From Eledone cirrhosa (Eukaryota): a stretch of DNA of 64,000 nt. The translations under genes and the position numbers were made by a program. Within the stretch, counting starts at the first letter, position 1. Every line of letters starts with the position of its first letter. Below the pieces are notes generated by a model. The model made no database searches, was not told where the DNA came from, and worked only from the letters and a program-made list of their open reading frames with translations. Shown here piece by piece: positions 15,198 through 51,132 of the stretch. Location of the stretch: contig OZ024741.1 of NCBI GenBank assembly GCA_964016885.1, forward strand, positions 383,594,001 through 383,658,000. Reading direction: 5' to 3'.

Positions 15198-15525
15198 TAA
15201 TATAAGATCAAAAGATGGTTAAAAGAGTTCCATGTATTTTATTATGAATAGTGCAGTTTTAAATCAACATATGTTGATTTAAAACTGCACTATTCACAAG
15301 TGTTTTTTAACCTTCATATCATGTCTCCCTATTTTATCTGACGAAAACGCAAATGTCATCGCATGATGATATTTGTTTTTGAAATGCGCATAATAAAATA
15401 CATGGAACTCTTTTAAACATCTTTTGATCTTATATTATTTATACTCGAGTCCTACAAACTGTAGAGTGCTACTAATCCGATATCTGCATTGCTTTATTGT
15501 ACTACAATAAAACTCACCTCCTACA
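15198..15525 (+). mobile_element. Foldback PLE 3' end between (TA)n tracts: short arm 15198-15246, long arm to 15436, tail of about 88 nt
   Basis: aatataagatcaaaagatgg / catcttttgatcttatatt inverted pair; internal perfect hairpin 15245-15296; same family as 45972-46140. Confidence 0.8.
15330..15400 (+). ncRNA. Type-I hammerhead ribozyme, intact core
   Basis: tattttat CTGACGA aaacgcaaatgtcatc-gcat-gatgatatttgttttt GAAA tgcgca TA ataaaata. Confidence 0.88.
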
Positions 15526-15540
15526 TATATATATATATAT

Positions 15541-15765
15541 ATTAGTAGAACACTGGTGGGTTATACCCGTAGTAGTAGAGCACTCAGTACATGGAGCGAG
15601 TTTGGTAGCAGTAGTTCCACAACAGATAGTTCACTGCGGACAATTGTTTCACCTTATTCGGATCCTCAAGCTCGGTGTGGACAGAGCTGAGGTTCCGAAT
15701 AAGTTGAAATAATTGTTCTCACAATTGCTCTCAGTATTGTGAACTAACTGTGGTGGAACTACTTA
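15541..15765. mobile_element. Foldback of the Naiad-like family 3' end with two back-to-back degenerate hammerheads
   Basis: Arms 15610-15673 / 15684-15763; tail 15541-15609. Homologous to the termini of 34155-37111 and to 45520-45703. Confidence 0.75.
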
Positions 15766-15782
15766 TATATATATATATATAT

Positions 15783-16262
15783 ATCACAGAAAAAAGAGAA
15801 TCAGTGTTGCGACGAAAGGAATTTATTGGACATATTACCATTGTTTCTTGGGTGACCAGCTCGAGACACGATCGATATGGTGATCAAACCTGACCCTGAA
15901 ATAACTCGGTCGTCAGATGCGTCTCGATTCTACGAAGCAGATTTTTCCTATAGTCCTTTAACATCGAATTTCTTCATTTGTTGATTTAGATCCTGTAGTT
16001 GTGATTCCATGAGTTGTCAAGAATTGTACATTTCACGTGTACAATTATTGACAACTCAAGGAATGACAACAACAGGATCTAAACCACCATATCGATCGTG
16101 CCTCGAACTGGTCACCCGAGAAACAATTGTAATATGTCCAATAAATTCCTTTCGTCGCAACATTGATTCTCTTTTTTCTGTGATATCATACTCTGCTCTA
16201 CGAGGGCATTGAGTGCTCATACAGCCTACCGCATACGGACGCTTTAAGCATCCAACACCAAT
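15783..16262. mobile_element. Foldback PLE 3' end: outer arms 15783-15882 / 16085-16186, inner inverted repeat 15985-16083, tail 16187-16262
   Basis: atcacagaaaaaagagaatc / gattctcttttttctgtgat; (TA)n on both sides. Confidence 0.8.
15829..15923 (-). ncRNA. Hammerhead ribozyme with extended stem II
   Basis: Minus strand: gacgcat CTGACGA [about 60 nt] GAAA caatgg TA atatgtc. The other arm preserves GAAA caattg TA. Confidence 0.65.
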
Positions 16263-18064
16263 TATATATATATATATATATATATATATATGTATATATA
16301 TATGTAGGACGTGTAGGACTCCGACGGCTGAGCTCAAGCCGTTTCGACGGCTAATATATAACAATTTTACTTTTAATTATTGTACAATTCTTGTATAATA
16401 TATGTCGCATTCATTACACCCTGTAAATATTAAACTGTTGTTCACAACATCAATATATATATATATATATATATATATATATATATATATATATATATAT
16501 ATATATATATATATATATATATATATATATATATATATATATATATATAACATATATATATATATATATATATATTAACACACACATATATATATATATG
16601 TTACCGACATATAACACACAGAATAACACACCACTATATCAAACTGAATAAAGAATTTATATATATATATATATATAAATTGATTATTCAGTTTGATTTA
16701 GTGGTGTGTTATTCGGGAGTGCTACAAGTTCCAACACTGCTTAAGACTGACTTGAACTATCTGCAGAACGTATATATATATATATATATATATATATATA
16801 TATATATATATATATATATATATATATATATACGTATGTCGGTAACGGCAGAAAGAATGGAGTACTAAATACCGAAGTAGTGTTTTAATATTCATTTATA
16901 TTAAGGCTTAAATGTGAGTCTTGTTATTCAGGAGATTCGCCTGTGATATGTGTGTGTGTGTGTGTGTGTGTGTGTGTGTGTGTGTGTGTGTGTGTGTGTG
17001 TGTGTGTGTGTGTGTGTGTGTGTGTGTGTGTACGTGTGTGTACGTGTGTGTACGTGTGTGTACGTGTGTGTACGTCTGTGGCTGCTGTAAGAGTATAGTT
17101 ATGTATGTTCTATGACGTTCTGACAAAAGGGTGGAAGAAATTGGCTTTTCCTTAGCGAGATTTACAAAACGAAAGATTTCAAGTAAAAGTGAAACATTCA
17201 ATCATTATATTTTCGTTTATTTGGGGAATCAGTCAGAATATAGGTGAGCACTCTAATGGTATTACAGATTAGACGAAAAATACCATTTAATAAAAAAAAA
17301 AAGGAAACAAAGAGAGAAAAGTAAACGCCATCTTATATTATAAATTTTTTTTAGTCGATGAGGGCTGTGTTATTTTTAGCTGATATATACGCATGTGAGG
17401 ACATTATGAGATTAATTCAGCGAGTTAATTCAATATATTGCTTTGAAATGTCAAGACCGCAAGCCTTTCATGAATAAAATGCAGCAAAAATTAATTTGAT
17501 AGTATGTGCATAAGTTAGTTCCTTATCGAAGAATCGCCGAAACATTTTGCATTGTTATTATAAAATAAACAGTAAGGGTTGATAGTTTTGTGACCAATCT
17601 ACTATGAAATTACTTAAATAACGTTCGTGAAATCTCTTTCTGAATTGATTCGTAGACATACATATTAAAGCAATGTTGTTTTGCTTAATGTGCGATGCGA
17701 TAGTAATAGCATAAAAATATTTGTGTGTATAAAGAAGGAGGGACTGTAGTGTTGAGACCGAGGAGACCACTAATCATGTAGAGTGTGTAAATAAATGTTA
17801 CCGCGGCGGCCAACCACTTTATGTCGCGGTCAGGATTTTACACATCGCTTTTTCTCTCTCTCTCTCTCGCCCCCCCCCCCCCTCTCTCTCACTCTCTCTC
17901 TCTCTGTATATATATATATATATATATATATATATATATATATATATATATATATATATATATATATACACAGTTTAAGAGTAAACCAATCTTAAATAGA
18001 GAGATGGATATAGGAGAGAGTAGTGAAACAATTATAAACCGACATTATTATTATTATTATTCCT

Positions 18065-18260
18065 GTGGATTGGCTGTATCGGTAGAGAGTCGGACACCAT
18101 GATTTAGAGCATAGCGTTACGTTCCTTTATGATCTGAGTTCAAATCCCGCCGAGGTTAACTTTGACTTTCATGCTTACCGAGTCGATAAAATAAAGTACC
18201 AGTAATGTACTGGGTAATTTGCTGGCCTTGTGCCAAAAATAGAAACAATTATTATTATTA
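18065..18260 (+). mobile_element. SINE family A
   Basis: Homologous to 13521-13709; flanked by (TTA)n. Confidence 0.85.
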
Positions 18261-48906: not shown

Positions 48907-49399
48907 TATATATATATATATATATGTGTGTGTGTGTGTGTGTGTGTGTGTTTGTGTATATATGTATCTATATATGTATGTGTATGTAAATATATATAGA
49001 GAGAAATAGAGAGAGAAAGCGAGAGAGAGGGAAATTGTTACATTTACTAAACGAAGATAGACAGATATATAGGTAGATAGCTACAGATAGCTGCTGTCCG
49101 TGTACTAAGCATCTTGTCAACTCTATGTGTGAAAGAGAGTTAATGAGGAAGATATCAACATTTTCGCAGACAAATCTAACATGAACTTGACAGCTATTGT
49201 ATATGCACGAAATTTGTCCAAAGAATAATGGTACTGATTGTTCTATGTACGACACGGCAAGGCAGCTCCTCGTTGGTGTATATAGATATATTGGTTATGA
49301 CATTGGCTGTACGCACATACTTGTTTCAACGTGATCGATTGAATCAGTCGTGAATTATTAGACGTTTATATAACCTCTGTTGCATTTGTGAAGTAAGAA

Positions 49400-49622
49400 A
49401 ATATCGGACAACAGTATCCGATCAAATTTTGTGAGAAACTCAAGAAATCTGGTATCGGAACATTTAATTCTTTAACGCAAGCTTATGGGGATGCCACTTT
49501 ATTGTGAAATAAGGTTTTTAAGTGGCACAAGGCTTTCAGGCAGGGGCCAGAAAATATTGAAAACGAGCCTCGTTCTGGAAGGCCAATTTCGTCAACTAAT
49601 GACAAAATATGGAAGTGGTGGG
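49400..49622 (+). mobile_element. Mariner transposase N-terminal relic
   Basis: IKFCEKLKKSG..TFNSLTQAYGD...VFKWHKAFRQG.ENIENEPRSGRP. Confidence 0.85.
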
Positions 49623-49750
49623 AGCGGTAACGGCGAATGAGCTTCTCAGATGCCACAAAGAGTGAGGTGTTCATACATTGTATATATATATATATATATA
49701 TATATATATATATATATATATATATATATATATATATATATATATATATA

Positions 49751-49897
49751 TAGGAACAAGTAAGACCCCGACTGCTGAGCTCAAGCCGTTTCGACGGCTA
49801 ATTCTGTACTTGTTCCTATTACCCACTCTACTACCCTAAGTATTGAGTACTTTGGTGCGTTATGGTCCACCTGGTTCCTTACCACATTTCCTTCGTT
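49751..49897. mobile_element. Micro-foldback (taggaacaagta / tacttgttccta) with half hammerhead and tail
   Basis: Lies between (TA)n tracts; tail hairpin at 49825-49848. Confidence 0.7.
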
Positions 49898-50057
49898 ATA
49901 TATATATATATATATATATATATATATATATATAGAGAGAGAGAGAGAGAGAGAGAGAGAGAGAGAGAGAGAGAGAGAGAGAGAGAGAGAGAGAGAGAGA
50001 GAGTCTGCCATACAATATATACTTACTTCGGGAATATATATATATATATATATATAT

Positions 50058-51132
50058 AATATTAAGGATACTATTTATGGTTATGTATATACTAAAACTT
50101 TTTATAGTTATGTATATTTTAAACCATAAACAGTGAAGGTCAGTAATTTATTACTATCTTATTACCAGTAAGATAAATAGCTCAATGTAATAACATCAGT
50201 TGTTCTACAGAGCAGTTATATAGAATTCACAAGAATCAAAGCTATATTCAAAGCATTTATTCACTTACAATCGTTTCATCCAAACCTAGGCTTGGAATCT
50301 TCGGACCATTTTTCAATGTTTGTACACATAATTGACCTCCTTTCCAACGCAAGAGGCATACAGATACATATATACATATTGATGTACAGTGCAGTGACAT
50401 ATGTTATACTATATTATTTATGTATAGCAATTCAAATTCAAAATCAAAATCAAAATTAAAATTAAAACAAAATTAAAATACATTCGGCAGTTAACACAGA
50501 TAATGCAAGAGGATAGTTTGTTAGTCAGATGTAGTAGTTAGTGTATGCGTTAGTTACACGTGGGGCATGCAAGTGTGTCTCATTTATATATGATTATTGT
50601 GTGGCAGGGTGTTACATGTAATACAAGCACTTTAAGCGGGTAAGTAAGAGTATTATGGTTGTTATAGTGGTAAGGTATTTTTTGTATATAATAAAAAAGT
50701 ATGTGTGCAGAAAAATAAAAATAAAAAGGAGAAGTAAAAGAAAGTTATGGTTTTCGTATCCACCACCATTTTCACATTCAGGAAAAGTAATATAAAGTTT
50801 TTACATCCATCACATAAGTAACGATGATTCCGTATTGGATTATCTGTGTTAACTGCCGAATGTATTTTAATTTTGTTTTAATTTTGTTTTAATTTTAATT
50901 TTGATTTTGATTTTGAATTTGAATTGCTATACAGAAATAATATAGTATAATATATGTCACTCCACTGTACATCAATATGTATATATGTATCTGTATGTCT
51001 CTTGCGTTGGAAAGAAGGTCAATTATGTGTACAAACATTGAAAAATGGTCCGAAGACTCCAAGCCTAGGTTTGGATGAAACAATTGTAAGTGAATAAATG
51101 CTTTGAATATAGGTTTGATTCTTGTGAATTCT
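50058..51132 (-). mobile_element. Foldback of the 26108-family 3' end (tail 50058-50220; arms about 50222-50505 / 50840-51132); CCGAAGA hammerheads at about 50262-50308(-) and 51045-51093(+)
   Basis: Tail matches the reverse complement of 29727-29890; the short arm ends at the same site as 26108. Confidence 0.85.

Follow-up and report, generated by a model that had tools for sequence, protein, structure and literature searches.

Penelope-like elements (PLEs) have been described as carrying an inverted, 5′-truncated copy of themselves, often with a tail at one end only, and as targeting (TA)n (Craig et al. 2021, PMC8557442). In the same paper, Hydra-clade PLEs are characterized by hammerhead ribozymes, a CxCX5C linker and a DKT motif, the families listed include a Hydra family from an octopus, and the origin of the inverted pseudo-long terminal repeats (pLTRs) and one-sided tails is treated as an open question. 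Penelope copies of the rotifer Adineta vaga have head-to-head inverted pLTRs, one of which may bear a 31-bp tail (Arkhipova et al. 2013, PMC3846280). The Poseidon PLE of Anolis carolinensis (PAc) nicks and extends both target strands in vitro, and its reverse transcriptase (RT) initiates at two internal sites, which mark the limits of the tail; this sole in vitro study does not go past initiation of the first strand (Frangieh et al. 2024, PMC11167929). Non-LTR retrozymes have been presented as non-autonomous PLE derivatives (bioRxiv 10.64898/2026.07.22.740005). Here, foldback insertions between (TA)n runs were analysed in a 64,000-nucleotide (nt) stretch of the Eledone cirrhosa genome (assembly GCA_964016885.1, contig OZ024741.1, positions 383,594,001 to 383,658,000), referred to as the window, and their families were followed through the genome. 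They are head-to-head PLE insertions into (TA)n. In the likely mechanism, both nicked strands would prime on one RNA with an inner and an outer start site, and the resulting cDNAs would join by microhomology.

In LINE-1 twin priming, reverse transcription of one RNA is primed from both target strands, and an inversion results when the two cDNAs are joined through microhomology. The second priming site is variable and lies far upstream, so the arms do not overlap. The arms in Eledone instead duplicate each other, because the second site is fixed 40 to 170 nt from the first.

The Eledone foldbacks share an inverted copy, one-end tail, (TA)n targeting, hammerheads, CxCX5C and DKT with the elements of PMC8557442. 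There, however, the tail is 30 to 40 bp and ascribed to endonuclease (EN)-mediated resolution, whereas tails here reach ∼170 nt, and the parts of that paper covered contain no tail stem, pairing statistics or template analysis. Head-to-head pLTRs, a one-sided tail, and palindromes with microhomology at junctions also occur in A. vaga, where they are explained by self-priming on an antisense template (PMC3846280), while the present data favor two sense-primed cDNAs. With PAc, the foldbacks share two internal starts bounding the tail, nicking and extension of both strands, an AT-rich target, an upstream hammerhead and a predicted dimer. The PAc tail is shorter (30 to 40 nt versus up to ∼170 nt), and the portions of PMC11167929 considered report no strand bias or coupling of sites, whereas one inner and one outer start were found per insertion here. 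Earlier papers thus already report inverted copies, tails on one side, targeting of (TA)n and a pair of internal RT start sites (PMC8557442, PMC3846280, PMC11167929), and neither the anatomy nor the two-start idea is new. Apparently new are the combination of one tailed and one tailless end, the freedom of either arm to be longer, rare variants shared at 6 kb, and centers formed anew. A literature search found no account of the pairing rule or of the (repeated) tail stem, although an earlier description in Arkhipova 2006, Pyatkov 2004 or the supplementary figures of PMC11167929 is not excluded.

Tailed and tailless ends of the (TA)n foldbacks

A preliminary description of the window had listed 14 loci with the layout microsatellite, inverted arm, center, direct arm, tail and microsatellite. 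Self-comparison and end-to-end alignment recovered this layout at all 14, with tails of 17 to 167 nt, and the single arms at 42385 and 45972 ended at the inner site of their own families, as had been claimed. The layout also extends beyond the window. A chance-control survey covered 864 kb (the window plus 800 kb out of four chromosomes). It classed as foldbacks 90 of the 835 segments bounded by (TA)n runs, versus 3 of 834 with randomly re-paired ends. These 90 comprised 65 that were flush at one end with a 17- to 168-nt tail, 10 symmetric and 15 ragged foldbacks, and clustering gave dozens of families.

Families, named by window position, were then searched in 3.0 Gb of genome sequence. The proposal that insertions of one family reuse the same two arm end points held sharply for three of them: all 30 position-ordered tailed ends of the 48470 family (fam0) stopped at +39/40 or continued into the element, and the tail measured 88 to 89 nt in 15/15 copies of the 15198 family (fam5) and 66 to 68 nt in 17/17 copies of the 34155 family (family A). 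It failed for the 22306/33802 family, in which no fixed short-arm end was present; of 22 foldbacks, 17 had the other arm ending 33 to 57 nt (mode, 35) short of the tail end and one had it 91 nt short, and four were tailed on both sides. More than one outer end point was found in fam7 (C2 block, L016) and fam3, with tails of 45 to 51 and 59 to 60 nt and AT-rich sequence after each. Exact matching returned 3,717 tailed and 5,400 tailless ends for fam0, 19,627 genome matches to an exact 24-mer for fam5 and 5,094 matches for family A. The 15541 and 45520 members of family A have old, diverged arms, which corrects the preliminary description. Single tailless copies were common, and in raw reads from two other samples, a tailless end followed by (TA)n was present in 754 and 780 reads.

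Tailed ends were paired with tailless ends. Among 164 listed fam0 ends, of which 74 had no exact-match partner, 42 of 45 outward-facing pairs within 8 kb combined a tailed with a tailless end (expected, about 21 to 22); two were tailless and one was tailed on both sides. The same combination accounted for 8/8 pairs in fam5 and 13/13 in family A, or 63 of 66 across the three families. Palindromes tailed on both sides were rare (L198, at G000:C3:345098820-345099289, and L391).

The (TA)n runs adjoining elements had a median length of ∼26 to 30 nt, versus 14 nt for the background. Telomerase-like repeat addition at the inner site was considered and rejected, since the (TA)n was not longer on the tailless side (64/126; P = 0.93). 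Chains of elements of different families sharing one (TA)n run were observed at window positions 15125-16600 and 33784-34155.

The preliminary description had placed the inner site in AU-rich sequence beside a hairpin, and this agrees with what was found. The first bases past the inner site matched (TA)n over a mean of 3.2 nt (controls, 0.48), and a match of at least 2 nt was present in 33 of 42 family representatives. A stem of the form RYUC..GRRY, with a 1- to 2-nt 3′ bulge and a variable upper helix, starts 5 to 13 nt past the inner site. After six of the 42 representatives had been left out (four with microsatellite-dominated tails, one duplicate family and one with a tail across another element), 18 of the 25 tails with a length of ≥62 nt had the stem, compared with 1 of the 11 shorter ones; shuffled tails gave 1.7/36 and antisense tails gave 2. 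One family, fam6, was scored as a short tail without a stem, and its full tail at 40187 has a weak one. A basal pair that was not forced by the descriptor covaried (A-U in 8, G-C in 9; Fisher P = 0.0004), and G-U pairs occurred in the stem of two families.

Priming at the RNA's 3′ terminus, as had been proposed for one of the two events, was not borne out. Among copies with the 5′ region of the open reading frame (ORF), 21 of 30 had a direct pLTR and tail upstream, and the tail continued to an ATG 28 nt later. Such read-throughs, which begin with TAT or ATAT, were also found in family A, the 49751 family and fam4; a targeted search of 15 loci found none in the 15198 family. Since the tail of a tandem copy continues straight into the element, RNAs of this kind contain the outer site internally. 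Sequence after the outer site indicates a copy of the hairpin there as well, a point missed in the preliminary description: with three more representatives left out, the motif was detected by script in five of seven read-throughs, by eye in a sixth and as a 3′ half only in the seventh, against a background of 88/1934 (4.6%).

Formation of the two arms

Of 27 fam0 pairs whose arms differ in length, 14 have a longer tailed and 13 a longer tailless arm; in L204 and L215, the tailless arm carried >4.4 kb. Since either arm can be longer and the tailless arm can hold a near-full-length ORF, the two primings suggested earlier gain support. Central joining of the arms was likewise upheld. In position-ordered fam0 copies, centers gave lengths from 148 to 7455 bp, and the 390-bp form (777 copies) represents a hotspot at the parent's TCAGATCAGA. 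The first 50 of these comprised 35 perfect and 15 imperfect palindromes, and the imperfect centers were oriented one way relative to the tail in 8 cases and the other way in 6, with 1 untailed. Occurrence of both orientations fits two cDNAs annealing at GATC better than snap-back of one. The fam5 hotspot corresponds to the parent's CATATG, and arms of the 22306 family cluster at a CATGTACGT stretch. Junctions outside hotspots had 0 to 11 nt of overlap or short insertions, and small local hairpins and templated insertions were present at some centers (15247-15299). Centers form anew, with hotspots at short palindromes (GATC, CATATG). No support for short arms ending at the hammerhead cut site was seen in the centers inspected, for which no formal test was made. 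Fixed arm differences in family A, another candidate, were discarded, as young copies have near-identical arms. At window positions 39372-39573, 16621-16714 and 21156-21301, a (TA)n run itself forms the palindrome center, as expected if two cDNAs enter (TA)n and anneal there.

The arms also share rare variants, which the preliminary description had not noted. Across 63 pairs (L199 dropped, L156 left out of the variant count, identical copies collapsed and 11 copies chosen by similarity included), 14 rare variants were on both arms in 6558 bp of hotspot copies, 4 in 1148 bp of short copies and 4 in 2739 bp of long copies with 1.4- to 6-kb spacers. Diagnostic positions of a minor subfamily were on both arms in seven copies, one rare variant formed four mirror pairs of differing spacing among 37 matches, and the −167G variant formed three among 14. 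Both arms thus derive from one template lineage, and a single RNA molecule may have served for both. A suspected pairing of different RNAs in L151 and L207 proved to be an alignment artifact caused by an indel.

In the mechanism that we consider likely, EN would nick both (TA)n strands, as PAc does (PMC11167929). Because (TA)n is self-complementary, both nicks would yield an identical primer end, which could pair with the UAU at a start site; the homology is observed and the pairing is presumed. Two RT subunits would settle on a single RNA, one at its inner and the other at its outer pad, with the two stems as their landing sites. That molecule would be used twice, requiring strand displacement, and both RTs would copy toward the 5′ end and halt at variable points. 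The cDNAs would then join by microhomology, with short palindromes favored, a chemistry suggested by the junction features, and host end-joining would close the center.

The RT of PLEs belongs to the sister group of telomerase. Tentatively, and with a little less than even confidence, we propose that RNAs of the Hydra clade carry two tandem RT-positioning elements, each consisting of a UAU alignment site, a 5- to 13-nt spacer and a RYUC/GRRY stem with a 2-nt 3′ bulge, and that an RT dimer on one RNA primes from both (TA)n strands, making the palindrome a programmed outcome. If so, programmed palindromes would reflect telomerase-like template positioning in the sister group of telomerase, with passengers such as the tRNA-bearing unit described below carried along. 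In one subgroup, two start spots with the same predicted hairpin after each would explain a long-puzzling PLE feature, and the conserved stem offers a small, mutable RNA element for direct tests of start choice by a telomerase-related RT. Thousands of young copies per family constrain any model to an inner and an outer start per insertion, either arm longer, the same template and palindromic join hotspots.

Several observations weigh against two primings on one RNA or limit how far the evidence for them reaches. Rare variants confined to one arm outnumbered those on both (76 versus 22), and −167G was one-sided in three two-armed copies; one-sided variants fit later mutation or occasional pairing of different RNAs. 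Several subfamily backgrounds carry the variant with four mirror pairs in both arms, so that a contribution from gene conversion is possible, and sequence cannot separate one RNA molecule from two RNAs of one locus. Pairs tailed on both sides exist (1/45 in fam0, L198; 4/22 in the tRNA-bearing family). No stem was found in the short tails that Neptune-like families carry or in 7 of the 25 long ones, and window loci 15198, 15541, 34155 and 45520 fail the strict descriptor. This descriptor was written after the tails had been seen, and the stem therefore needs testing in other genomes; the seven read-through families were accepted as true read-throughs by eye. PAc starts lie in an AC-rich stem-loop without target homology, versus ∼3 nt of UAU homology here, according to the portions of PMC11167929 considered. 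Finally, no center-spanning read or contig was found in the raw-read data of the two other samples.

Among the alternatives, two primings could occur and the leading cDNA could fold back and copy itself, after which a short second cDNA would anneal to the folded-back strand; the template of one arm would then be the other cDNA and not the RNA. Such self-priming was proposed for rotifer PLE palindromes (PMC3846280), accounts for variants in both arms, RT errors included, makes strand displacement unnecessary and suits the local hairpins and templated insertions at centers such as 15247-15299. It is nevertheless unlikely: the 35 perfect hotspot centers are loop-less palindromes, hard to obtain by snap-back from the parent sequence, and fold-back by only the tailed cDNA would predict a single center orientation and a longer tailed arm. 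Since both are balanced, fold-back would have to work from either side. Whole-unit copying from a few masters, in the manner of miniature inverted-repeat transposable elements (MITEs), with symmetry arising by later conversion or inversion, was suggested by at least 40 near-identical 430-bp copies with one center and by a rare variant in both arms of three 390-bp copies. The 40-copy search was ranked by similarity, however, and position-ordered copies have centers from 148 bp to several kilobases; one center arises in different subfamilies, and variants are shared across 6-kb spacers. As a general rule this explanation is largely refuted and highly improbable, although some self-propagation of short palindromes is possible.

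Priming from two start sites, which we prefer, must also be set against generation of the tailless end by EN cleavage of a DNA intermediate at an AT-rich pLTR site, as proposed in PMC8557442. The inner site does resemble the (TA)n target, and the Drosophila virilis EN needs the tail for DNA recognition (as cited in PMC11167929). Against this, both sites map as RT starts in vitro in the anole element (PMC11167929), single tailless copies are common, G-U pairs occur in the stem of two families and a matching motif follows the outer site, which leaves EN resolution improbable. An assembly or chimeric-read artifact might be suspected, as palindromes and (TA)n are hard to assemble and no read crosses a center. 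Tails are one-sided and family-specific, paired ends lie up to 6 kb from each other, some arms have diverged and the tailless junction appears in independent reads, all of which makes an artifact exceedingly improbable.

Element identity and the tRNA-bearing unit

That the foldbacks are PLEs, as first suggested, was supported by protein domains. In L205, a parent copy of 48470, RVT_1 and GIY-YIG domains lie in one ORF of 784 amino acids, both over the Pfam cut-off, as is the GIY-YIG domain at window positions 27295-27699; in family A, the RT ORF and EN were found in separate copies. Partial tandems (pLTR), an inverted 5′-truncated copy and an optional tail, which are expected of EN+ PLEs, were all observed. 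The one-sided tails and variable centers do not fit the symmetric terminal inverted repeats (TIRs) and fixed unit of a TIR DNA transposon or MITE.

The 48470 parent, with its RT and GIY-YIG ORF, has a CX4CxxC linker and a CCHH-type EN and is thus called Neptune-like (CX2-5CxxC, CCHH, DKG). Its upstream ORF1 is out of frame with the RT ORF in both long copies examined, by frameshift or intron (L204, L205, L230), and its 3′ untranslated region holds a 125-bp inverted repeat and microsatellites. By motif signature, the 15198, 15541/34155/45520 and 26108/50058 families are assigned to the Hydra clade. The signature (CxCX5C, no CCHH, and CxxC with CxH around the catalytic E and N) is complete in 26108, 41283 and fam5; 26108 has a stop codon inside the linker, and in 34155 CxCX5C and CxxC are present and CPR replaces CxH. 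DKT instead of DKG was found in 9/9 family A read-through copies, and family A has RWR where the Hydra motif is RWK. Assignment by distance to the nearest EN was noisy and was dropped in favor of contiguous copies alone. The fetched copies of the 15783, 19424, 47955, 32176, 49751 and 22306/33802 families contained neither a contiguous RT nor a contiguous EN; four of these six carry the tail stem, one of them with a hammerhead. Our own descriptor predicted a minimal hammerhead in 13 of 42 representatives (shuffle mean, 0.01), located upstream of the inner site. It did so in 12 of 23 stem-bearing families, where the distance upstream was mostly 35 to 86 nt; Rfam searches at the gathering score found no ribozyme.

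The unit of the 22306/33802 family (∼271 nt) bears a tRNA (Rfam, 42.4 bits; gathering score, 29) that was also called by ARAGORN in 4 of 6 loci and is followed by a T5 run. Its tail has 1,290 exact matches, with further copies at L355:1580-1653, L365 and L366. Arms began at the tRNA 5′ end in 2 of 52 scored, and most stopped in its 3′ part. Judged by sequence, the unit looks like a non-autonomous passenger with PLE insertion geometry, possibly a PLE-dependent element akin to short interspersed elements (SINEs), and a literature search found no precedent for a tRNA-bearing PLE passenger. The 49751 family forms tandem arrays (unit, ∼257 bp in L131; a related array with a ∼58-bp period in L293), with further loci at L180 and window positions 16305-16350. 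These arrays are retrozyme-like, and short tandem pLTR-related units, as in the described retrozymes, characterize both families; in contrast to retrozymes, neither unit had a hammerhead by our descriptor, and the 22306 unit holds a tRNA instead. Foldbacks of this kind can be mistaken for MITEs or SINEs in annotation, and through them the genome gains a very large number of hairpin sequences.

Other features of the window

Foldbacks, single copies and partial tandems in the window are listed in the table.

Table. Positions of PLE-related insertions in the window
Position	Strand	Feature	Details
15200..15524	+	fam5 Hydra-clade foldback	Tailless arm of 47 nt, 15200-15246; long arm to 15435; 89-nt tail, 15436-15524
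15338		Minimal hammerhead start in 15200..15524	Predicted cut site 43 nt upstream of inner site
15543..15763	-	Old family A foldback, Hydra clade	67-nt tail, 15543-15609; arms diverged
15785..16262	+	Foldback	80-nt tail, 16183-16262; bulged stem, 16190-16214; ORF link not found
18406..19345	+	fam16 partial tandem	First tail, 18587-18756, continues into element; second ACTC..TC-GAGC motif after outer site; second copy ends in (TA)n
19426..20078	+	Foldback	89-nt tail, 19990-20078; stem with G-U pair, 20003-20027; ORF link not found
22306..22563	+	Foldback of non-autonomous ∼271-nt tRNA-carrying unit	54-nt tail, 22510-22563; center within tRNA part
26108..29890	+	Hydra-clade foldback	Inverted arm, 26108 to ∼26665 (by eye); GIY-YIG domain, 27295-27702; hammerhead variant at 29641; 167-nt tail, 29724-29890; stem, 29732-29765
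32180..32609	+	Foldback	Short tail, 17-20 nt
33803..34033	+	Foldback related to 22306 (tRNA-bearing unit)	52-nt tail, 33982-34033
34155..37114	-	2.9-kb family A foldback, Hydra clade	Tail, 34155-34220 (64-68 nt); EN, 34459-34950, minus strand; mirrored RT fragments, 35040-35573 and 35787-36320; hammerhead at 37047
40187..41855	-	Single tailed Hydra-type copy	Tail stem, 40225-40270; EN, 41283-41855
42150..42383	+	Single tailless copy, 48470 family	Ends at inner site
45520..45702	-	Old family A foldback	Tail ∼64 nt, runs into (GA)n
45973..46136	-	Single tailless fam5 copy with hammerhead	Flanked by two (TA)n runs
47958..48416	+	Foldback	Hammerhead at 48223; 107-nt tail, 48310-48416; stem, 48319-48340
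48475..48904	+	fam0 Neptune-like 390-bp palindrome	Center = GATC hotspot, 48667-48672; 40-nt tail, 48865-48904
49753..49896	+	Foldback	Tailless arm ∼54 nt, tailed arm 10 nt; 80-nt tail; stem, 49825-49848
50059..51132	-	Foldback related to 26108	163-nt tail, 50059-50221; stem, 50180-50213

The arms of the 34155-37114 foldback share 95 to 98% identity in their inner and 90 to 94% in their outer parts. Each arm contains an inversion, with EN on one strand and the RT fragment on the other, and a small inverted repeat lies at 34994-35111; the template was thus rearranged before it was duplicated.

Inverted repeats without flanking (TA)n were observed at window positions 4501-4785, 38500-38732 and 30092-30203, and 5′-truncated fragments of Neptune-like PLEs, covering RT thumb and GIY-YIG regions, at 20070-21330, 22995-23500 and 5680-6420. 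Decayed DNA-transposon fragments, which we take from their motifs to be mariner-like, plus another DDE-type element, occupy 14160-15100, 49330-49680, 51400-52000 and 43570-45150. The minus strand at 885-1607 encodes the RNase H/zf-RVT end of a non-LTR retrotransposon, identified by a weak Pfam match.

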